From positions 1 to 11,212 of the IMG/VR virus record IMGVR_UViG_2534681675_000018: DNA of 11,212 nt; one strand, written 5' to 3'. Every line of letters starts with the position of its first letter. Position 1 is the stretch's first letter. Source of the DNA: a virus (Duplodnaviria; Heunggongvirae; Uroviricota; Caudoviricetes). A program made the translations under genes and the position numbers. Shown here piece after piece: positions 2,160-11,212 of this stretch. Below the pieces are notes generated by a model. That model saw only the letters and a list, made by a program, of their open reading frames with translations, had not been told where the DNA came from and searched no databases.

Positions 2160-2654
2160 TCAAAACAGCCCTTTAACGGAGCTGGCCGCGCTGTTAAGGG
2201 ATGATGTGACCTTATCTTTGAAGCCGGACAGCATATCGCTGAACGATGAGGATTGCAGGCGCTCCCGCAAATCCTCATCACAGCGTTCAAGGGTCAGTGA
2301 AAATTCTATCTTTTTCGCCTTACCGTAGCGATCAAACTCGGAGCGGGTCGTATTCGTTCCGGTCAGGACATACATGCCGTAAATCTGCCCGACACCATCA
2401 ATCAGAGGCCAGGGGCGTCCTGTATATGCCTGCGTGGTCAGCAACGAAAGCGATACTTCGCCACCTGTAATTTCAGGATAAAGCACACCAGAAAGAACGA
2501 TGCGATCATCGCCTGCCCCGATATACTGCCAGCTTGCTGAACGGTTAACGCGTTCATTTTTCACATGCCGCCAGCTTTTGTTTTGCTGTAACTGCTGATG
2601 CGGCAATGTGCGCAGCTCAAAAACAAACATGCCGTAGATCATCATCATGGCCAT
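2160..2654 (-). CDS. U: P2 gpU-like tail protein
   Basis: 164 aa, M(A)MMMIYGMFVFELRTLPHQQLQ... resembles the N-terminus of P2 gpU family tail proteins. Immediately downstream of the tape measure on the same strand (T stop 2661..2663, GAGGAG SD in between). True start may be the third ATG (2648). Confidence 0.75.
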   Translation of the reverse strand: MAMMMIYGMFVFELRTLPHQQLQQNKSWRHVKNERVNRSASWQYIGAGDDRIVLSGVLYPEITGGEVSLSLLTTQAYTGRPWPLIDGVGQIYGMYVLTGTNTTRSEFDRYGKAKKIEFSLTLERCDEDLRERLQSSSFSDMLSGFKDKVTSSLNSAASSVKGLF

Positions 2655-2660
2655 GACTCC

Positions 2661-5498
2661 TCAATCTTTATCGTAAAAACTGCCACGCCCGGCACGGGCG
2701 CGCCGTTCCATTTCTGCCCTGACCATTTCACCGACCAGTTTCGCCAGTTCGCGGGGATTCTGCGTAACAACGTTATGCAGATGAACATGAATTTCACCGC
2801 CAAATCCGGAGACAACAGGCTCCCGGTTACGGGAAGTTGCAGGAACTGATGCCACTGGCGATCGTATGGCCTCCGCCACCGGGCGGGAGCTGGCCGCAAC
2901 AACAGGGACCAGCGCCGGAGGCAGAGGAGTCGGGACCACGGGTGTGATGTTGATTGCGGAAGCTGGCTTACTGATCTGCGCAATCTTCCGCTCCTGCCAC
3001 TCCCCACGAACAGCAAGTGCGCGGGGCAGGTTCTTAAAGACAATATCGCCGGGGCCAATGCGTTTTTTCGTCTCATCAACCAGCTTACCTGTGTTATCAG
3101 CAATTTTGCTGAGTCTGCGTAGCGTACCGGTATTGCTGTCTGTGAGCGGTTTGTTGTCTTTGGGTTTATCACCTCCGGTGCCATTTTCCACAGGCTTCGG
3201 CGGATTGATTTTCGCCAGGTCCCCCTGAAGCAAGGCAACCTTGTCCTGAAGAATGGCCGCACGCTGTGCGTCTTCGATTTTCTTTCTCGCCCTTTCCGCT
3301 TCATCCGGAAGCACACCGAGTTTTTCAAGTATCCACGCCAGCGTATCCAGCAGCATTTTTGCAGGCGTCAGAACAAGCTGTAGCGCGCCACCAAGAACGT
3401 TACCGAATATCTCGCCAGCACTGGTACATTTATCCAGCGTTTCCTTGCTGGACTCCATCGGTGACAGCAGCGATTTAAACCAGTTAAAGAGCTGAATAAT
3501 CCCATCGCGCACGACATCAAAAACAGGACCAAACCGTTCAAAGGTTTCGCGCAACGGAGCCAGCCGTTCCATAATCCCACTGAACACCCCGGCATAAAAC
3601 GCCTTGATGGGTTCCCAGTATTTCCAGATGAGAACCGCCGCAGCCACAAACGCGGCAACAATCAATCCGACCGGACTGAACAGCGCCCCGATAGCGCCAC
3701 CCAGCAACGAGATGGAACCTGTTACCATTCCCCATAGTGCTGGCAGCACCCTGACGACATTCATTGATCCGGTCAGGAGAGAAAAACCAAGACGTAACGT
3801 GGCCAGTTTCCCGTGAAGCACGCCAATAACCAGCGACAACGAGCCAATCGTTGCAGTCATTGCCAGCAACGCACCGCCTGCTATCAGTAGCTGGCGCGTC
3901 AGTGCCGGATGGGCCTGCGCCAGCGCCGTCACCCTTGATACCACCCGCGTGAGCCACTGCGTGACAGAACGCAGCGGGCCGTCAATCAGATCTGCAATGC
4001 GGATGCGCAACCCTTCCCATGCACTGCCGAGTGATTTCAGATCGCCATCAAGGTTGTTGGCCATAACCTTTGCCGTGCGTTCAGCCTCACCGCGTGCGCC
4101 TTCAAGTTCTTTTCTCAGTTTGGGTAAGGAACCGTCACCTGCCGCATCAACGAGGGCCATAAACGATGTGAAAGCCTCTTCCCCGGCGATGTCCTTAAAG
4201 AAGGATACCCGGTCAACTTCCCCGTATTTGCGGGTGGCTTTATAAAGGTCGGCCAGCACATCCTCCATCGGGCGCATTTTGCCGTTCGCGTCAGAAACTG
4301 CCACACCAAGCTCTTTCAGCGCCTCTGCTGCTGCCTTTGGCGGTGATGCCAGACGAGCCAGGCTGGCACGCATTGCCGTCCCGGCATCACTCCCTCTGAT
4401 ACCCATATTCGCCAGCACGCCCGCCATCGCTGCGGCCTGCTCCAGCGATATTCCCAGCTTACCCGCCACCGGACCTGCATATTTCATGGTTTCGCCCAGT
4501 GCGCGAAGGTCAGTGTTGGTACGGGTAAACGCTGCGGTGAGTGTGTCACCAACCCGGTCCATCTGGTCAGCAGAAAGGCCGAACTGCGTCAGGATATTTG
4601 AGCCAATATCCGCCGTCTCGCCGAGATCCATGCCGCCAGCCGTTGCCATGCTCAGCACGCCCGGAAGCGCAGCCTGAATGGCCTGCGGTGTGAAGCCAGC
4701 CATTGCAAGAAATGCCTGTCCACTGGCGGCATCGCCTGCGGTGAACTGCGTTTCAGAGCCAAGTTTTAACGCCTGCTCACGCAGCGCCTTAAACTGTGGG
4801 CTGTTCTGGTCGATTCGCGTCAGTGCCTGAACGCGGGACATCTCTTTCCCGAACCCGATCGCAGGCTGCAAAAAACGCCCGGCAGCATAGCCGCCAGCCG
4901 CTGCCGCACCAATTGCCAGCGCACCACCTGTTTTCAGTTTTCCAGCAGTTTCCTGCGCGCGCGAATACCGCTCACGCGCCCGCGTTACACGCGCAAGCGT
5001 CTGCCGTTCGCGTTCAAGCTGGTTGTTGTACTGTTCGGTGCGTCTGATGGCCTGCTGGATGGTGTTATCGCTGCCTGTCAGGGAAATGCCGTGGCGTTTC
5101 AGCTCTCCGCCAAGCTCCCGCATTTTCTGAATTTCCCGTGTGCGCGATTCATTCAGGCGTTCAAGCCGGGTGCTTAACTGCTGCATCAGCTTTTGTTGTT
5201 TTTCGCTGAGCACTGTACCCGTGCGTTGTAACTGATTAAGGGCGTTAAGCTGGCGTCGTGCTTTCACGATGCTCGCATCCGCTTTACTGACAGCGTCACG
5301 GGCGCGCTCAAATGAACGCGCCTGACGCTCGAGATTTTTGATCGCCCCCTGCGTTCGCTGGATGGAGTCACCAAACTGCCCCATCAGGCGGCGGGCGTTT
5401 TCGGCAGGCCGGGTCAGCCTGTCAACGGCGCTGAAAGCGACCCGGATATCAAGAGTCTTCATTGTCTGCATTCCCGCTGCGAAGTGCCGCCCGCTCAC
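2661..5498 (-). CDS. T: Tail tape measure protein (P2 gpT-like)
   Basis: 945 aa with coiled-coil-rich N-terminal third (repeated Q/R/E/L heptad-like stretches), Gly/Ala-rich central region and hydrophobic segments, typical of tape measure proteins. Position after the E/E' chaperone pair and before gpU. GTG start at 5498 is the longest option; ATG at 5471 or 5462 are alternatives. Confidence 0.9.
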   Translation of the reverse strand: MSGRHFAAGMQTMKTLDIRVAFSAVDRLTRPAENARRLMGQFGDSIQRTQGAIKNLERQARSFERARDAVSKADASIVKARRQLNALNQLQRTGTVLSEKQQKLMQQLSTRLERLNESRTREIQKMRELGGELKRHGISLTGSDNTIQQAIRRTEQYNNQLERERQTLARVTRARERYSRAQETAGKLKTGGALAIGAAAAGGYAAGRFLQPAIGFGKEMSRVQALTRIDQNSPQFKALREQALKLGSETQFTAGDAASGQAFLAMAGFTPQAIQAALPGVLSMATAGGMDLGETADIGSNILTQFGLSADQMDRVGDTLTAAFTRTNTDLRALGETMKYAGPVAGKLGISLEQAAAMAGVLANMGIRGSDAGTAMRASLARLASPPKAAAEALKELGVAVSDANGKMRPMEDVLADLYKATRKYGEVDRVSFFKDIAGEEAFTSFMALVDAAGDGSLPKLRKELEGARGEAERTAKVMANNLDGDLKSLGSAWEGLRIRIADLIDGPLRSVTQWLTRVVSRVTALAQAHPALTRQLLIAGGALLAMTATIGSLSLVIGVLHGKLATLRLGFSLLTGSMNVVRVLPALWGMVTGSISLLGGAIGALFSPVGLIVAAFVAAAVLIWKYWEPIKAFYAGVFSGIMERLAPLRETFERFGPVFDVVRDGIIQLFNWFKSLLSPMESSKETLDKCTSAGEIFGNVLGGALQLVLTPAKMLLDTLAWILEKLGVLPDEAERARKKIEDAQRAAILQDKVALLQGDLAKINPPKPVENGTGGDKPKDNKPLTDSNTGTLRRLSKIADNTGKLVDETKKRIGPGDIVFKNLPRALAVRGEWQERKIAQISKPASAINITPVVPTPLPPALVPVVAASSRPVAEAIRSPVASVPATSRNREPVVSGFGGEIHVHLHNVVTQNPRELAKLVGEMVRAEMERRARAGRGSFYDKD

Positions 5499-5987
5499 GC
5501 CAGCTAACCACTTCGCCGGGCGTCATCATGAAGATTTCGGCGGGCGACCAGTTAAAAATGGCGGCGATATCTGCCACCAGATCTTCGATGTGCTCAAAGC
5601 ACACCAGGGTGATTACGCTGCCGTCTCCTGCACGCTCTTCGCGCCAGAGTCTGGCTCGCTCATAAAATTTACAGCCACAGCGCACAACTGAATAAAATCG
5701 CGTGACGACATTTTTTTAATCATCACTTCATCCAGTCGTGGCGAGGTCACGCGAGGCAACAGCGTGAACATGGTATCCGCTTTCAGATTCAGCACATCAG
5801 ACAGCGACAGACCACGCAGGGATCCAGCCTGTTCAATAGCCCCGGTGATCTCCACATACGTGATTTTTTCGCCACCACGCTCAATTGGTCGGGTCAGTTT
5901 TACGCCACGTTCGACAGCCATATCCTCACCTGCCGTCACATCATCCACCACGGTGTTATTCCGGGTTTCAGTATCGATGTCTTTCAT
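5449..5987 (-). CDS. Predicted E+E' fusion chaperone made by programmed -1 ribosomal frameshift (E codons 1-92 joined to the -1 frame ending at 5449)
   Basis: The -1 frame relative to E has no stop from the A7 run at 5711..5717 down to 5449 and overlaps the tape measure start. This matches the conserved tail-chaperone frameshift architecture (lambda G/GT, P2 E/E+E'). Confidence 0.55.
5613..5987 (-). CDS. E: Tail assembly chaperone (P2 gpE-like)
   Basis: 124 aa ORF directly between the tube gene and the tape measure, with AAGGAG SD 6-7 nt upstream of the ATG at 5987. An A7 run (5711..5717) lies in the coding sequence and a -1 frame is open from that point to 5449, the hallmark of the E/E+E' pair. 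Confidence 0.7.
   Translation of the reverse strand: MKDIDTETRNNTVVDDVTAGEDMAVERGVKLTRPIERGGEKITYVEITGAIEQAGSLRGLSLSDVLNLKADTMFTLLPRVTSPRLDEVMIKKMSSRDFIQLCAVAVNFMSEPDSGAKSVQETAA
5711..5717 (-). other. Putative -1 frameshift slippery site (A AAA AAA on the coding strand)
   Basis: T7 on the plus strand = A7 on the coding strand, read as AUU AAA AAA AUG in the E frame. Slipping back one base on the Lys codons reads AAU GUC GUC... in the open E' frame. Confidence 0.5.
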
Positions 5988-6042
5988 CAGTTTTCTCCTT
6001 TTCAGTCAGAGGCGACGCACTGCGCCGCCTGCATATTACTTA

Positions 6043-6555
6043 TCAGCCAAGCCCGAGCGCGGAACGGATACGGTCAGGCACAATGTCCTTGCCGTCCTTC
6101 CGGTAGATGTGGTTCAACAGGTCGATTTCCCACAGCGGGCGATCGTTAACGCTCAGCTTGTAGTAGGTGTTTTTGACAGCGTAAGTGTGTGATGTGGCTT
6201 CGCCCTGTTTGGCTTCCCCCATATCAATTTCCGTCACACGTCCGCGCATCTCGATTTCATACAGATCGCTTTCTGCATCGGTGTAGTATTCACCCGCAAA
6301 ACGCAGCAGCGTGCCGTCAATCGCGCCGCCATATTTAAGGAACAGCGCACGAACAGCTCCCCCCATGACAAAACTCGCATCAAGCGCGGAGTCGTCCAGA
6401 CCGAGATCAATACTTACCGCCCCCATCATGCCACCACCACGATAGCTGTCGGTTTTGCGCGTCAGTTTGGGCGGCGTGACGGATGTCACTTTACCCACTT
6501 CGTTTTCACCATCCACAAACAACGTAAAAAAGCGAAGATGTTTTGGTACAGCCAT
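6043..6555 (-). CDS. FII: Tail tube protein (P2 FII-like)
   Basis: 170 aa immediately downstream of the sheath gene. Sheath stop and tube start overlap (TGATG) at 6553..6557. Size and position match the contractile-tail tube protein. Confidence 0.88.
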   Translation of the reverse strand: MAVPKHLRFFTLFVDGENEVGKVTSVTPPKLTRKTDSYRGGGMMGAVSIDLGLDDSALDASFVMGGAVRALFLKYGGAIDGTLLRFAGEYYTDAESDLYEIEMRGRVTEIDMGEAKQGEATSHTYAVKNTYYKLSVNDRPLWEIDLLNHIYRKDGKDIVPDRIRSALGLG

Positions 6556-7739
6556 CAGGCACCTCCCAGCACCGCAAATGCGGGACCAAAGAATTCATCA
6601 GTAAACGTCTGGTAAAGCTCCATGTCTTCCAGCGGGGGAACAGGCGTATATTTGTAGCGAATACGCACACGTCCCTGACGTAAATTCGTGGTGCCGTTAT
6701 CCACCACGTCATACCAGCACTCCGCACCAATCAGTTTCCCGGCAGTAACCAGCGAATCCAGTTTTGCCCTGATGGCGCTGATAACATCCTTCACGTTCGC
6801 AGGTGTCAGTGGACTGTCGATGGTTTCAAACTGCGCTTCCGCAATTGAATCAGCCAGCACCTGTGCGGTTCGGGTATACACCTCAAAGATGTAGGCGTTC
6901 GTTTCCGGTGTGCGGTTGCCCCAGAAGCGGAACCCGTTGCGACGAATAATGGTCGTGATTTCTTTGTTGTTGAGGCTGTTGGCATCGCTGTCTTCGGCCT
7001 GCAACGACCAGAACACATGCCTGGACATCCCCAGCACATTTTTAACCGGAACGTTGGACAGCGATTTGTGCCAGCCCTGTTCATGGTCAATGTACGCACG
7101 AAGGCCGCACGCATAGGCAGGCGCGGGGAACGTTTCGTTTTCGCCACTTTTCGGGTTGTAGGCGATGAAGTCCGGCCATAAGAGCATCACTTCACGTTCG
7201 TTGAATTTCTGGCGGTAGGTAATCGCTTCAGCCATCGTGTTACAGCCGTGACATGAGGCATACACAAATGCGCGCAGTTTACCCGCAATCACGCACAGGG
7301 ATTTTGTCACCGCCTCCGTGTCCAGCTCCGGCGCGGCCAGAATACGCGGACGGTATCCGATGCTTTCATCCTGCTCTGCAACAAGCAGCGCATACATCCC
7401 CGTATAGCTGCCGTCATCCTCAGAACCACCGATAACCAGTTGATCCTGCGTCTTTTCGTCTTCTTCTTTGTGTTCAGCCACGCGAACGACGATCACCTTT
7501 GTGCTCACCTGGTCTGCGATGGCCTTAAGCGCACGATAAAGCGTCCCCGTTGTCCCGCATTTCCCCAGCACGTCATTGACGCGGGTCAGCAGTGTGGGCT
7601 TGTTCAGCGGGAACAGCTTCGCGTCCGCATCATCCGCCGTTGCCACGATACCGATAACGCTGGAATCAACATCGTTAATCGCTGTTACCAGGTCGGTATT
7701 TTCCGTAACACGGGCACCATGAAAACGAGTTTCACTCAT
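6555..7739 (-). CDS. FI: Contractile tail sheath protein (P2 FI-like)
   Basis: 394 aa, the size of P2 FI; first gene of the sheath-tube-chaperone-tape measure order; AAGGGG SD upstream of the ATG at 7739. Confidence 0.9.
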   Translation of the reverse strand: MSETRFHGARVTENTDLVTAINDVDSSVIGIVATADDADAKLFPLNKPTLLTRVNDVLGKCGTTGTLYRALKAIADQVSTKVIVVRVAEHKEEDEKTQDQLVIGGSEDDGSYTGMYALLVAEQDESIGYRPRILAAPELDTEAVTKSLCVIAGKLRAFVYASCHGCNTMAEAITYRQKFNEREVMLLWPDFIAYNPKSGENETFPAPAYACGLRAYIDHEQGWHKSLSNVPVKNVLGMSRHVFWSLQAEDSDANSLNNKEITTIIRRNGFRFWGNRTPETNAYIFEVYTRTAQVLADSIAEAQFETIDSPLTPANVKDVISAIRAKLDSLVTAGKLIGAECWYDVVDNGTTNLRQGRVRIRYKYTPVPPLEDMELYQTFTDEFFGPAFAVLGGA

Positions 7740-7896: not shown

Positions 7897-9006
7897 ATGA
7901 CCGACACCACCATGCAATTGCTCAGTCAGGGCACAGACCCCGTGAAAATGCCGGATTTTGATATTCTCGCGGAGGGTAAAACGTTGTCAGGCGTGGCAGA
8001 GCGCCTGATGAGCCTGTCACTGACCGACAACCGGGGATTTGAGGCGGACCAGCTCACCATCACGCTGGATGATGCGGATGGTCAGTTGCAGCTACCGCTA
8101 CGGGGCGCGCGCCTGACGGTTCTCATTGGCTGGAAGGGAGAACCGCTGACAGAAAAAGGCACTTACATTGTTGATGAAATCGCTCACGAAGGACCGCCGG
8201 ACAGGCTGACTGTTTCAGCCAGAAGCGCAGATTTTCGGGATGAATTTAACGTTAAACGTGAGGTGTCCTGGCATGATGTGACCATTGAGCGTGTGGTATC
8301 CGCCATCGCTCATCGGTATGGTCTGAAACCGCAAATCAGCGAAATGCTGATGGATATCGAAATCGACCACGCCGACCAGACCGAAGAAAGCGACATGTCC
8401 TTCCTTACGCGCATGGCGGAAATGCTGGGCGCAATCACCACGGTAAAAAGCGGCAATCTGTTATTCATCATGCCAGGTGGTGGCGTGAACGCACAGGGCC
8501 AGCCGTTGCCCTCGTTCGCCATTACACGCAGCAGCGGCGATCGCCATCAGTTCCGTATTGCTGACCGCGAGGCTTATACGGGGGTACGCGCCTACTGGCT
8601 TGATCTTAATTACGGGAAAAAGAAAAAAGTCAGCGTAAAACGCCGTAAACCGCCAAAACCCAAAAAGGAGAAAAGCAGCAGCCGTGAAGGTGATTATATG
8701 GAAGGCGCGGAAGGCAATGTGTTTGTGTTACGCAAGACTTATCAGAACGAGCAGGCAGCAAGACGCGCAGCGGCGGCAAAGTGGCAGCAACTACAACGCG
8801 GAGCCGCAGCGTTCTCCATCACGCTGGCGCGTGGACGTGCAGAACTCTACCCCGAAATGCATGGCACGGTAACAGGATTTAAAAGCGAGATTGATAATCA
8901 GGACTGGATCATTGCAAAAGCCGAGCACACCATTGATAACAGTGGCTTTACCACGCAGCTTGAGCTTGAAGCAAAAATCCCGGAATGGATAGCAGAAACA
9001 GAGTGA
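7897..9006 (+). CDS. D: P2 gpD-like tail protein (late control gene D family)
   Basis: Start chosen at ATG 7897 (MTDTTMQLLSQGTDPVKMPDFDILAEGKTL...) because it has a strong SD AGGGAGG 6 nt upstream. The upstream part of the track ORF (7765..7896) is low-complexity and not protein-like. About 369 aa, the size of gpD, and followed directly by ogr as in P2. Confidence 0.85.
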   Translation: MTDTTMQLLSQGTDPVKMPDFDILAEGKTLSGVAERLMSLSLTDNRGFEADQLTITLDDADGQLQLPLRGARLTVLIGWKGEPLTEKGTYIVDEIAHEGPPDRLTVSARSADFRDEFNVKREVSWHDVTIERVVSAIAHRYGLKPQISEMLMDIEIDHADQTEESDMSFLTRMAEMLGAITTVKSGNLLFIMPGGGVNAQGQPLPSFAITRSSGDRHQFRIADREAYTGVRAYWLDLNYGKKKKVSVKRRKPPKPKKEKSSSREGDYMEGAEGNVFVLRKTYQNEQAARRAAAAKWQQLQRGAAAFSITLARGRAELYPEMHGTVTGFKSEIDNQDWIIAKAEHTIDNSGFTTQLELEAKIPEWIAETE

Positions 9007-9048: not shown

Positions 9049-9309
9049 ATGTTCCGTTGTCCGCTTTGTGGCGCATCTGCCCGTATCCGCACCAGTCGTC
9101 CGGAAAATGATTCAAACACCGTGCGGCAAAAGTATTACCAGTGTAACAATCTGGAATGCGGCGTATGCTTCTCAACACTGGAAGCTTTCCATAAATTCAC
9201 ATCGAAACATGCCTCCGGCGTTCACTCTTCAGAAGGTATCCCGTGGCATGAGCTGCCAGCTTCACACAGGGGAAACAATCAGATGAGCTTGCCTTTATCT
9301 CAGAATTAA
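9049..9309 (+). CDS. ogr: Ogr/Delta-family zinc-finger late transcription activator
   Basis: MFRCPLCGASARIRTSR...YYQCNNLECGVCF... has the C-x2-C-x22-C-x4-C arrangement and the MFxCPLC N-terminus of P2 Ogr. SD AAGGGAGG 5 nt upstream. Confidence 0.85.
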   Translation: MFRCPLCGASARIRTSRPENDSNTVRQKYYQCNNLECGVCFSTLEAFHKFTSKHASGVHSSEGIPWHELPASHRGNNQMSLPLSQN

Positions 9310-9369: not shown

Positions 9370-9633
9370 ATGGTCGGAGGGAATACCCGAAGGCCGGATG
9401 TGGAAAGGCCCCGGAAAACATTTCTGTTTAACCGAGGCCCTAACCGCATTACCTTGACAAGTGAAAGGTTAGCGCCTCTCCGGAAAAGGAGCAAGTGCTA
9501 TGTCGCAAAAATCGCTTACGGCCATCACGTTCTGCGTGACGGCAATCCTCATCATCTGGATGCTGCATGGTTCGCTGTGCGAAATACGGATGAGCTTCTG
9601 GGGAGCGGAGTTTGCGGCGTTCTTACAGTGTAA
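9370..9633 (+). CDS. Possible mok-like overlapping reading frame (modulator of toxin translation)
   Basis: Open frame starting upstream of the toxin ORF, overlapping almost all of it and ending 7 nt before its stop, the same geometry as mok/hok. Protein is low-complexity, so it may only serve translational coupling. Real start uncertain (ATG 9370 or GTG 9400). Confidence 0.3.
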   Translation: MVGGNTRRPDVERPRKTFLFNRGPNRITLTSERLAPLRKRSKCYVAKIAYGHHVLRDGNPHHLDAAWFAVRNTDELLGSGVCGVLTV

Positions 9634-9640
9634 GCAGTAA
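9500..9640 (+). CDS. hok: Hok/Gef-family type I toxin (46 aa small membrane protein)
   Basis: Not in the ORF track (below 60 aa). ATG 9500 with SD AAGGAG 8 nt upstream; TAA at 9638..9640. Protein MSQKSLTAITFCVTAILIIWMLHGSLCEIRMSFWGAEFAAFLQCKQ has an N-terminal hydrophobic helix with C-V-T-A-I and C-terminal SLCEIR...E.AAF, matching Hok (...KSLCEIRYRDGHREVAAF...). Confidence 0.65.
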   Translation: MSQKSLTAITFCVTAILIIWMLHGSLCEIRMSFWGAEFAAFLQCKQ

Positions 9641-9775: not shown

Positions 9776-10078
9776 ATGAGTGAAATGGTATTTTGTCGCG
9801 GATGCGGCAAGGAAATACATAAAGATGCCACATCCTGCCCCAATTGTGGAGCACCTCAAAGAACAGCAAGTTCAAAAAGCAGAATGACAGCCGCACTACT
9901 GGCTTTCTTTTTAGGTGGTCTTGGTGCACACAAATTTTATTTAGGTAAAGTGGGGCAAGGATTCCTTTACCTTATTTTTGCTGGACATTCATTCCGGCAA
10001 TCGTGGCATTTATTGAGTTTTTTATCTATCTATGCACCTCTGATGAAGACTTTGCCCGCAAATATGGCTAATGCCTAG
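9776..10078 (+). CDS. Zinc-ribbon / TM2-domain membrane protein, with apparently frameshifted C-terminus
   Basis: N-terminal CRGCG...CPNCG zinc ribbon, then LLAFFLGGLGAHKFYLGK (TM2-domain-like first helix and GAH+FY motif). After the T5 run at 9975..9979 the -1 frame encodes a clean second helix and acidic tail (CWTFIPAIVAFIEFFIYLCTSDEDFARKYG, stop 10069..10071), whereas the in-frame continuation (AGHSFRQSWHLLSFLSIYAPLMKTLPANMANA) is not helix-like. SD AAAGGA 7 nt upstream of the ATG. Confidence 0.7.
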   Translation: MSEMVFCRGCGKEIHKDATSCPNCGAPQRTASSKSRMTAALLAFFLGGLGAHKFYLGKVGQGFLYLIFAGHSFRQSWHLLSFLSIYAPLMKTLPANMANA

Positions 10079-10097
10079 TGGGCGAATCAGAATGACA

Positions 10098-10131
10098 AAC
10101 CCGCAGCATAAAAACTGCGGGTTTTCTTTTT
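10098..10131 (+). terminator. Rho-independent terminator downstream of the TM2 gene
   Basis: AAACCCGCAG cataaaaa CTGCGGGTTT followed by TCTTTTT: GC-rich 7-bp stem (extendable by A-T pairs) plus a U-run. Confidence 0.75.
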
Positions 10132-10155
10132 GTCACCCTCACAAATGAGGGTAAC
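10132..10155. promoter_or_regulatory. Near-perfect palindrome (possible operator or second terminator hairpin)
   Basis: GTCACCCTCA caaa TGAGGGTAAC: 10-bp arms matching 9/10, 4-bp spacer, directly after the terminator U-run and upstream of the GATC dyad. Confidence 0.3.
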
Positions 10156-10175
10156 ACCACTCATAAGTAATAGGC

Positions 10176-10229
10176 ATAACAGATCGATGCAATAAATCCG
10201 ATCGATAAAAACGATCGATTTGTTATCAT
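10176..10229. promoter_or_regulatory. Dyad-symmetric element with three GATC (Dam) sites overlapping a -10-like hexamer; putative methylation-sensitive operator/promoter of the com-like operon
   Basis: GATC at 10182..10185, 10200..10203 and 10213..10216, each within GATCGAT. Outer arms ATAACAGATCGAT (10176..10188) and ATCGATTTGTTAT (10214..10226) are inverted repeats (12/13), with the symmetry centre on the middle GATC. TATCAT -10-like hexamer at 10224..10229 overlaps the right arm; com-like start codon is about 35 nt downstream. Confidence 0.45.
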
Positions 10230-10263
10230 ATCGGCAGCAGTAACCACACAAGAGGTGCCGCAA

Positions 10264-10461
10264 ATGACGCAAAATGTACGATGCAAAAATTGCAACAAAC
10301 TACTTGCCCGCGCCTCATTTCACTACATTGAAATAAAATGTCCGCGCTGCAAAACACTTAACCAGATAACGAGAGCCATCGAGCACCCCACACACATGAG
10401 GAGTTATGACCGTGGGGATCGCAATCCAGCACCAACCAGCACATACACCGGAACACACTAA
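10264..10461 (+). CDS. com: Com-like zinc-finger translational regulator
   Basis: MTQNVRCKNCNKLLARASFHYIEIKCPRCKTLNQITRAIEHPT... closely parallels Mu Com as I recall it (MKSIRCKNCNKLLF...HIEIRCPRCK...EHPT), including the four-Cys zinc finger. ATG 10264 preferred over the track's GTG 10255 (SD AGAGG 8 nt upstream). The 3' end overlaps the methyltransferase start by 56 nt, as com overlaps mom. Confidence 0.75.
   Translation: MTQNVRCKNCNKLLARASFHYIEIKCPRCKTLNQITRAIEHPTHMRSYDRGDRNPAPTSTYTGTH
10386..10417 (+). promoter_or_regulatory. Predicted RNA stem-loop sequestering the methyltransferase SD and start codon
   Basis: CCCCAC (10386..10391) pairs with GTGGGG (10412..10417). The 20-nt loop contains GAGGAG (10398..10403) and the ATG at 10406; a fourth GATC sits at 10417..10420. 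Analogous to the translation-inhibition stem of the Mu mom mRNA that Com relieves. Confidence 0.35.
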
Positions 10462-11212
10462 GGTTTATCAGACTGACAATGCCACGCTCTGTCGTGGGAA
10501 TGCGCTGGAAATATTGCCGCTGATTGAGCCAGAAAGCATTGATGCCTTAATCACTGACCCGCCTTACAGTTCGGGTGCGACACACAAGGCCGGACGCACC
10601 AACCAAGGCAGCCATGCAAAATATCTGAACGGCGAGAACCTTCACCGCTTTGATGGGTTCGCGGGTGAAAACATGGACGCCCGTTCGTGGGCTTACTGGA
10701 CACAATTATGGATGGCACAGGCACACCGCGCAGTCAGGCCGGGCGGTTATGCCCTGGTATTTACTGACTGGCGACAACTACCAGCTTTAACCGATGCGTT
10801 TCAGGCCAGCGGCTTTACATGGCGCGGCATCATTGCGTGGAACAAGGGGAGGGGGTCACGAACACCCCATACGGGGTATTTCAGGCATCAGTGCGAATAC
10901 ATCGTCTGGGGCAGCAAAGGCCATTTAGATAAATCGCCTTCGGGGCCGTTCGACGGCTGCATGACGTACCCGGTTATCCCGTCAAAGAAAATGCACCCGA
11001 CCGGAAAACCAGAAGAACTAATGGCGGAACTGGTCAGGACTGTGAATAGTGGCGGAACAGTCCTTGATCCTTTTATGGGGTCAGGGACAACGGGTGTGGC
11101 TGCACTGAAAGCAGGGCGAAAATTTATTGGTATAGAAACCAGTGATCATTATTTTGAGGTAGCAGCGCAGCGGCTTCGGGGGACTATTACCACAACCATT
11201 TCGGCTACATAA
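10406..11212 (+). CDS. DNA methyltransferase, beta-class amino-methyltransferase (N6-adenine or N4-cytosine; DPPY motif)
   Basis: 268 aa with catalytic motif IV LITDPPYSSG near the N-terminus and AdoMet-binding motif I (LDPFMGSGTTGVAALKAGRKFIGIE) near the C-terminus. This motif order defines the beta group. Start at ATG 10406 or GTG 10412; stop TAA is the last three bases of the window. No restriction endonuclease partner in the window. Confidence 0.9.
   Translation: MTVGIAIQHQPAHTPEHTKVYQTDNATLCRGNALEILPLIEPESIDALITDPPYSSGATHKAGRTNQGSHAKYLNGENLHRFDGFAGENMDARSWAYWTQLWMAQAHRAVRPGGYALVFTDWRQLPALTDAFQASGFTWRGIIAWNKGRGSRTPHTGYFRHQCEYIVWGSKGHLDKSPSGPFDGCMTYPVIPSKKMHPTGKPEELMAELVRTVNSGGTVLDPFMGSGTTGVAALKAGRKFIGIETSDHYFEVAAQRLRGTITTTISAT

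Follow-up and report, generated by a model that had tools for sequence, protein, structure and literature searches.

What governs the expression of a phage-borne DNA methyltransferase gene when three Dam sites lie directly in front of its operon? The question is raised by an 11,212-nt stretch of DNA (hereafter the window), identified here as the right end of a P2-like Escherichia coli prophage, in which an initial annotation had proposed a Dam-methylation switch upstream of a com-like gene by analogy with the Mu mom promoter. Our analysis favours a more specific reading, in which positions 10170 to 10216 are probably a methylation-sensitive OxyR operator at the promoter of a com-methyltransferase operon, carried as a cassette by the prophage.

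Both genes that had been proposed downstream of the sites were identified on the plus strand. The com-like gene (10264-10461, 65 aa), preceded by a Shine-Dalgarno sequence read directly from the DNA (AAGAGG, 10250-10255), matched the Pfam family PF10122 (Zn_ribbon_Com, E=9.5e-12), and its four cysteines were invariant in an alignment with Mu Com. It is overlapped by 56 nt by the second gene (10406-11212), whose product is, as had been suggested, a methyltransferase and not Mom: a beta-class N6/N4 DNA methyltransferase of 268 aa with a DPPY motif (PF01555, E=2.3e-33), related in the PDB to DpnA-type enzymes, CcrM and MboIIA. Among the com loci that we grouped, Mom-type cargo was found only in groups B, C and D. 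We rejected identity of the enzyme with the non-specific M.EcoGII and M.EcoGI, since M.EcoGII has 349 aa and resides on another prophage, and identity with the non-specific Hia5, which is alpha-class. Inside the 3' end of com, an mRNA hairpin on the plus strand (10383-10422; -17.5 kcal/mol, z=-2.3), in which CCCCAC at 10386-10391 pairs with GUGGGG at 10412-10417, buries the Shine-Dalgarno sequence (10398-10403) and the AUG (10406) of the methyltransferase gene. This hairpin is analogous to the structure that inhibits translation of Mu mom and is presumed to be the target of Com; the resemblance implies that translation of the methyltransferase depends on Com.

In the remainder of the window, the minus strand encodes the tail sheath, tube, E/E', tape-measure and U genes, and the plus strand gpD (7765/7897-9006) and an Ogr/Delta zinc-finger gene (9049-9309); unlike in P2, the sheath-tube-E-T-U tail operon lies on the strand opposite gpD and ogr. 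In this part of the window (~400-2150 and 2160-7739) a serine recombinase (invertase) gene at 1534-2133 adjoins oppositely oriented tail-fibre assembly genes, both named from the annotation of the near-identical locus L002 (L and H numbers are our labels for loci), which suggests that the tail-fibre segment beside it is invertible. Accessory genes abound in the interval from ogr to com: a Hok/Gef-type toxin gene (9500-9640, from RefSeq annotation; MokW-like in phage Chuche) and a gene for a membrane protein with an N-terminal zinc ribbon and a TM2 domain (9776-10078; PF05154). The latter is followed by an inverted repeat that forms a strong intrinsic terminator (10097-10124, plus strand; 10-bp stem with 6 GC pairs, then a T-run), and since this terminator precedes them, com and the methyltransferase gene form a separate transcription unit. 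Between terminator and operator, at 10131-10156, lies a further 11-nt inverted repeat (TGTCACCCTCA/TGAGGGTAACA, 4-nt loop), which is present in L005, L034 and L086; unrelated sequence takes its place in L004, L012 and Chuche, and because it is replaced in some relatives we place it outside the conserved cassette.

In complete genomes the prophage terminates after the methyltransferase gene, where raiA adjoins. The same com-methyltransferase cassette occurs in the isolated phage Chuche, which is 94% identical from window position 10095 onwards and then continues into an integrase gene. Overall the cassette was carried by 173 of 5426 complete E. coli genomes (~3%) and was present in Salmonella as well. 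One copy (H60, NZ_CP035755.1) sits on a 25.4-kb sequence of E. coli E110019 that carries the label of a plasmid. Another (L086, NZ_JBQPOM010000071.1) is on a 226-kb contig of an assembly named 'Vagococcus sp. WN89Y', a member of the Firmicutes; its cassette is of the E. coli type, with 92% Com identity, and is probably contamination.

We then considered the sites themselves. The three GATCGAT repeats that had been reported within 35 bp do exist, at 10182, 10200 and 10213, and are the only three in the window. The corresponding Dam sites, GATC-I (10182-10185), GATC-II (10200-10203) and GATC-III (10213-10216), span 35 bp in total, fitting into a single OxyR-sized site (~45 bp), lie between the terminator and com and abut the -10 hexamer; the next GATCs are at 8907 and 10417. 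The symmetry attributed to the cluster held only in part. There is a 13-nt inverted repeat, ATAACAGATCGAT (10176-10188) and ATCGATTTGTTAT (10214-10226), complementary at 12 of 13 positions and centred at 10201 inside GATC-II, so the 51-bp dyad that had been drawn (10176-10226) is real in the window. The spacing of the GATCs is nevertheless asymmetric, 18 + 13, and the relatives L024, L037 and L165 lack the outer arms (ATAACA/TGTTAT) of the dyad, for which reason we rejected it as a functional unit; as drawn, the dyad is sublineage-specific.

The promoter follows directly. As had been noted, a -10-like TATCAT (10224-10229) sits at the right arm of the dyad (10214-10226); it matches TATAAT at five of six positions and, with its TG extension, forms the extended -10 element TGTTATCAT (10221-10229, plus strand), leaving a gap of 7 nt to GATC-III. 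A weak -35-like hexamer, TCGATA (10202-10207, plus strand), overlaps GATC-II, and this hexamer, a 16-nt spacer and TATCAT make up the sole sigma-70-like match between 9700 and 10500; since 1.6 such matches would be expected by chance in these 800 nt, the promoter is to be read as no more than a consensus match. Diverged relatives retain both the hexamer and its distance to GATC-III, with TGGTATCAT in L037 and TGCTATCAT in phage Chuche; at that offset group C has TATACT, so that a -10 hexamer stands at a fixed position relative to GATC-III even in lineages with 56-65% Com identity. From this arrangement we infer a transcription start at ~10236, which would place the operator at about -66 to -21.

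Other promoter architectures were tried and set aside. P2 late promoters dependent on Ogr/Delta have a TGT-N12-ACA dyad centred near -55 and no -35; near the present promoter no such box was found, the sole match in the window being at 10339-10356, inside com, and a late promoter of this kind was rejected for the window lineage. A promoter upstream of GATC-I, in the style of agn43, was rejected too, since the agn43 -10 (TAGAAT) aligns with TAGGCA, which is unusable. In the pap-type Lrp/Dam switch two sets of Lrp sites contain two GATCs separated by ~100 bp, and here the spacing is 18 + 13 with no distal GATC.

To ask which protein might read the sites, we scanned the window with the 37-nt OxyR consensus of Toledano, ATAGnTnnnAnCTAT-N7-ATAGnTnnnAnCTAT in the form quoted in a passage of PMC2909390, scoring each of 11,176 positions out of 20. 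The top four matches (15, 15, 14 and 13) all fell within 10170-10228, and elsewhere in the window the score never exceeded 12. The best compact register, 10179-10215, scored 15; the comparison with Mu mom region I and agn43 that the initial annotation had proposed gave the same register as the best in both, with 13 and 14, respectively. An extended register of two half-sites 31 bp apart, starting at 10170, gave a still cleaner fit: it likewise scored 15 of 20, the sole score above 12 among ~22,000 positions. Its right half-site, ATCGATAAAAACGAT (10201-10215), matches at 8 of 10 positions and is bounded by GATC-II and GATC-III; its left half-site, ATAGGCATAACAGAT (10170-10184), is weak, matching at 7 of 10 with a C in place of T6 of the motif, and ends in the GAT of GATC-I. 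Half-sites at offsets of 31-32 bp also occur in Mu (1148 and 1179) and agn43 (406 and 438). All three GATCs coincide with OxyR recognition positions, and in the extended register the A·T pairs of each GATC form the outer edge of an ATAG/CTAT-like recognition element, which makes it plausible that N6-methylation would exclude OxyR. Judged from its sequence, the interval 10170-10216, whose conserved pattern can be written as ATAG-N8-GATC-N14-GATC-N9-GATC, is a predicted OxyR tetramer site in the extended mode of reduced OxyR, a prediction that draws on the motif match of 15/20 as well as on the conservation and the weight-matrix score (z=3.9) described below.

If the element is functional its key positions should have been kept during evolution, and conservation was one of the points on which the proposed switch had been said to stand or fall. 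We gathered 80 com loci from IMG/VR and 80 from GTDB genomes, and defined as window-type those with Com 71-100% identical and the same methyltransferase cargo. In 30 of 34 window-type loci all three GATCs were kept, and relative to the ATG of com they stand at -82, -64 and -51. Of the exceptions, one (L009) has GAAC at GATC-II and three (L034, L035 and L036) share a precise 31-bp deletion between GATCGAT-I and GATCGAT-III, which L086 carries as well. The deletion lies at ~1950-2000 in L034-L036 and at ~1440-1500 in L086, with the junction sequences ATAACAAATCAATTTGTTATCAT in L034/L035 and ATAACAGATCGATTTGTTATCAT in L086. The deletion alleles have lost the -35-like hexamer and retain the -10 and com, with an intact methyltransferase gene confirmed in L034, and are candidates for constitutive variants that lack the operator. 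These alleles fit a promoter dependent on its extended -10, since they lose the one hexamer and keep the other.

In seven more diverged loci (L024, L037, L165, Mu, a pair from group D, and L092), ATAG and the three GATCs, 16 positions in all, showed 3 mismatches out of 112, and the 31 positions interspersed among them 108 out of 217 (~50%; Fisher p = 3e-21, a value that overstates independence because the loci are related and ATAG was joined to the key positions post hoc). Even so, the contrast between the two classes of position is stark. Taken with the close relatives, this alignment pattern indicates that the GATCs are under strong purifying selection. In groups B and C, in which Com is 56-65% identical and the cargo is Mom, only the GATC-II/III pair is present, 13 nt apart and at the same -64 and -51. 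The 18(19) + 13 layout is preserved in Mu, group D, L092 and L088, which also carry Mom, except that group D lacks GATC-III; in these loci the operator is farther from com (GATC-II 77-96 nt before the ATG). Thus the operator travels with com whatever the cargo, Mom or methyltransferase, and is constrained precisely at the Dam/OxyR positions. In group B com-mom loci (L047, L038 and others) the sequence TGTTGTATCAATTAAACA, ~91 to 74 nt before the ATG of com, replaces GATC-I and the left half-site; it is a TGT-N12-ACA dyad resembling the P2 Ogr/Delta box, and the group B promoter may be a hybrid, both activator-dependent and Dam-sensitive.

The cluster had a clear taxonomic boundary. It was present upstream of com in Escherichia, Salmonella, Citrobacter, Apirhabdus and another Enterobacteriaceae genome, and no GATC cluster was found upstream of com in Haemophilus FluMu (L143), Eikenella, Snodgrassella, Acinetobacter, Moraxella, Methylophaga, Marinomonas, Marinobacter, Vreelandella, Desulfovibrionaceae or Magnetococcales, which confines it, among the com loci examined, to Enterobacterales. 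Enterobacterales hosts possess both Dam and OxyR.

These data also bear on whether the element does anything at all. It could be an inactive relic, inherited together with the com cassette from an ancestor resembling Mu, or a group of ClaI-like ATCGAT palindromes that came together by chance. Some natural copies have indeed lost the operator, by the 31-bp deletion or through the GAAC of L009, and a cluster of bare GATCs is not rare by chance: in Markov-1 simulations of the window, 14% contained three within 35 bp, which makes the GATC density alone unremarkable and GATC clustering too weak as a stand-alone statistical argument. Two GATCGAT within 38 bp appeared in 0.4% of the simulations. A relic or an accident would hardly be expected, however, to keep ATAG and the GATCs nearly invariant among neighbouring bases that have diverged by ~50%, to retain three sites in 30 of 34 window-type loci, or to provide the only OxyR motif match of its quality in the window, and we regard this explanation as highly improbable.

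The pattern is not limited to com loci. Exact matches to ATAG-N8-GATC-N14-GATC-N9-GATC were found in at least 120 IMG/VR loci (L166-L285) and, among the matches listed, 95 of 121 were outside com loci and 26 in them. We compared 70 distinct non-com sequences at the positions that the pattern leaves free, and the sequences listed agreed at T6 (60/70), A10 (63/70), G35 (61/70), T37 (60/70), A41 (61/70) and C43 (65/70). Because these unspecified positions agree, the OxyR half-site is in effect rebuilt twice, 31 bp apart. A weight matrix made from the unspecified positions only of 62 non-com phage operators, some of which are probably related and not fully independent, scored the window operator at z = 3.9 (7 in 100,000 random sequences were as good) and that of Mu at z = 2.3.

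The genes next to the signature were of several kinds. In at least 46 of the listed loci it stands, with its ATAG side facing the gene, 60-70 nt upstream of a small lipoprotein gene of PHROG 1119, the Cor superinfection-exclusion protein (for example L177 2465-2511, L194 and L218 5761-5807); in at least 13 it precedes a 67-aa ORF, and further listed copies adjoin a Ner/HTH_35-like gene, a membrane protein gene or tail-fibre genes. The distribution of the signature suggests that many phage morons, notably cor, are under OxyR/Dam control, and our literature search returned no paper on such control of cor and other phage morons. As a search pattern, the operator signature retrieves many further candidate OxyR/Dam-controlled phage genes.

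The same set is relevant to the identity of the bound protein. A factor other than OxyR could occupy the element: SeqA on hemimethylated DNA, Com, or a phage-encoded regulator such as Ogr/Delta, Cox or the immunity repressor. Methylation might also affect RNA polymerase directly at the -35, as in IS10 pIN. In keeping with this, GATC-II overlaps the -35-like hexamer, the 31 bp (about three helical turns) between GATC-I and GATC-III would suit SeqA, and Com is labelled a 'DNA-binding transcriptional regulator' in RefSeq. Yet outside the GATCs the conserved positions (ATAG, those of the T6/A10 type and C43) recreate the OxyR half-site, the promoter has no TGT-N12-ACA Ogr box in its vicinity, and the recurrence of the same operator in unrelated phages with different regulators and at the chromosomal agn43 gene points to a host factor; SeqA, for its part, would work beside OxyR and not replace it. 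This alternative therefore seems to us improbable, and OxyR remains the preferred candidate.

On the precedents of Mu and agn43, we infer that OxyR would bind the operator in a methylation-sensitive manner, the direction of the effect and the action of Com following the same models. With the GATCs unmethylated, or possibly hemimethylated, a reduced OxyR tetramer would occupy the half-sites 10170-10184 and 10201-10215; lying over the extended -10 promoter from ~-66 to -21, it would block RNA polymerase. N6-methyl groups placed by Dam on the outermost A/T of the ATAG/CTAT-like elements would exclude OxyR and permit transcription, and Com made from the transcript would then open the hairpin at 10383-10422, as in Mu, so that the methyltransferase could be translated.

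The sign of the effect could also be the reverse. OxyR could be an activator, acting in a class-II-like manner or like OxyR(AB) of gtr, so that expression would require OxyR on unmethylated sites and Dam methylation would switch the operon off, opposite to Mu mom. The -35 hexamer TCGATA is poor, the predicted OxyR site at ~-66 to -21 lies partly where activating OxyR sites lie, and passages of PMC2909390 describe how gtr is activated by OxyR bound to a GATC-bearing site, OxyR(AB). With a -10 that matches at five of six positions and has a TG extension, though, an activator should be unnecessary, and the natural 31-bp deletion alleles (L034-L036 and L086) keep the -10 and com, with the methyltransferase gene confirmed as intact in L034. 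Moreover the homologous operators of Mu and agn43 are both repressing sites. We consider activation improbable, and repression by OxyR, relieved by Dam, is the model we retain.

In a lysogen, such a promoter could act as an agn43-like ON/OFF switch of an orphan methyltransferase (a 'phasevarion'), as part of a larger OxyR/Dam operator set that includes cor and other morons; this is a tentative proposal and on balance a doubtful one. A heritable switch is conceivable because the locus has no phage activator site, because the operator sits on a strong extended -10 and because the region is rich in morons. If the proposal were correct, subpopulations of cells would express or silence an orphan DNA methyltransferase, and were the enzyme also to methylate GATC, its own promoter could be locked ON. 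The switch would then be one instance of a much larger and undescribed set of phage-borne OxyR/Dam operators. The cassette would also offer a simple model for asking whether lysogens express prophage methyltransferases bistably, and may help to explain why prophage methyltransferases are frequently silent in methylome surveys. In our literature search, which covered few subscription papers, we found no description of the present operator in the P2-like com-methyltransferase cassette, and the SMRT methylome papers on O111, ST131 and O145 strains that we consulted did not mention the com-methyltransferase locus.

Dam/OxyR control is established for Mu mom, agn43, gtr and opvAB, and heritable ON/OFF switching has been proven for agn43. 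In Mu, this control was reportedly worked out by Hattman in 1982, by Bolker and Kahmann in 1989 and by Hattman and Sun in 1997. Its mom region I contains three GATCs and is repressed by OxyR (MomR) until Dam relieves the repression, according to passages in PMC4461284 and PMC2909390. The analogy drawn with this promoter has gained considerably in detail. In the Mu genome (NC_000929) the GATCs upstream of com are at 1160, 1178 and 1191 of L003, a spacing of 18 + 13 identical to that in the window; in both, ATAG stands 8 nt ahead of GATC-I, and the operator cores agree at 25 of 37 positions in the best OxyR register. In both as well, com overlaps the downstream DNA-modification gene and a hairpin covers the start of that gene. 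Together with the shared com homologue, these features indicate from position and sequence alike that the window element is homologous to Mu mom region I.

The differences from Mu concern what surrounds the operator. Mu has ~40 more nt between GATC-III and com, holding the C-activator site and the C-dependent -10 (TAAGAT), whereas in the window the operator directly covers the -35 and the spacer, which leaves no room for a C-activator site. A 9-mer, TAACCACAC, is common to window 10241-10249 and Mu L003 1209-1217; in Mu it belongs to the region bound by the C activator, ahead of the -10, and in the window it falls in the predicted 5' UTR before the com Shine-Dalgarno sequence. It may be a remnant of common ancestry, the ~40 nt having been inserted or deleted between the lineages. 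The cargo and the vehicle also differ, with a beta-class methyltransferase on a P2-like element in the window and Mom on a transposable phage in Mu. Genes for adenine methyltransferases after com, with no mom, are described in a part of PMC3299994 for FluMu (Hin1523), Hia5, Pnm1 (Nma1821) and B3 (ORF48), and the com-linked methyltransferases of Mu-like prophages are called alpha-class and Dam-related in a part of PMC5778455. The window enzyme, in contrast, is of the beta class (PF01555), and the FluMu com locus (L143) is without a GATC cluster, where the window has three sites.

In agn43 (flu) of K-12 the GATCs are at 418, 437 and 450 of L084, a 19 + 13 layout with one extra base between GATC-I and GATC-II. 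Like the window, the gene has an ATAG ahead of GATC-I, and its right half-site is almost the same (ATCGTTTATATCGAT versus ATCGATAAAAACGAT). Its operator lies at and downstream of the transcription start, the 5' end of isrC/flu being at GATC-I, whereas that of the window is upstream of the -10; in both cases OxyR would be expected to repress by occlusion.

The gtr genes of P22 and Salmonella and opvAB are, like the methyltransferase gene of the window, phage-borne accessory genes, and in them an OxyR half-site lies between paired GATCs with a spacing of 13 nt, an arrangement also seen at GATC-II and GATC-III of the window. In gtr the four GATCs form two pairs, separated by 51 nt, and there are three half-sites, which gives alternative activating and repressing occupancy; the window has a single tetramer site and three GATCs. 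At gtr it is the promoter-overlapping OxyR site that represses, as stated in part of PMC2909390, and the position of the window operator is closer to this repressing OxyR(BC) site of P22 gtr than to that of Mu. The logic of Mu mom would extend to a com-methyltransferase cassette present in ~3% of complete E. coli genomes and in Salmonella, in a variant layout with the operator directly on the promoter, no activator site and a beta-class methyltransferase as cargo.
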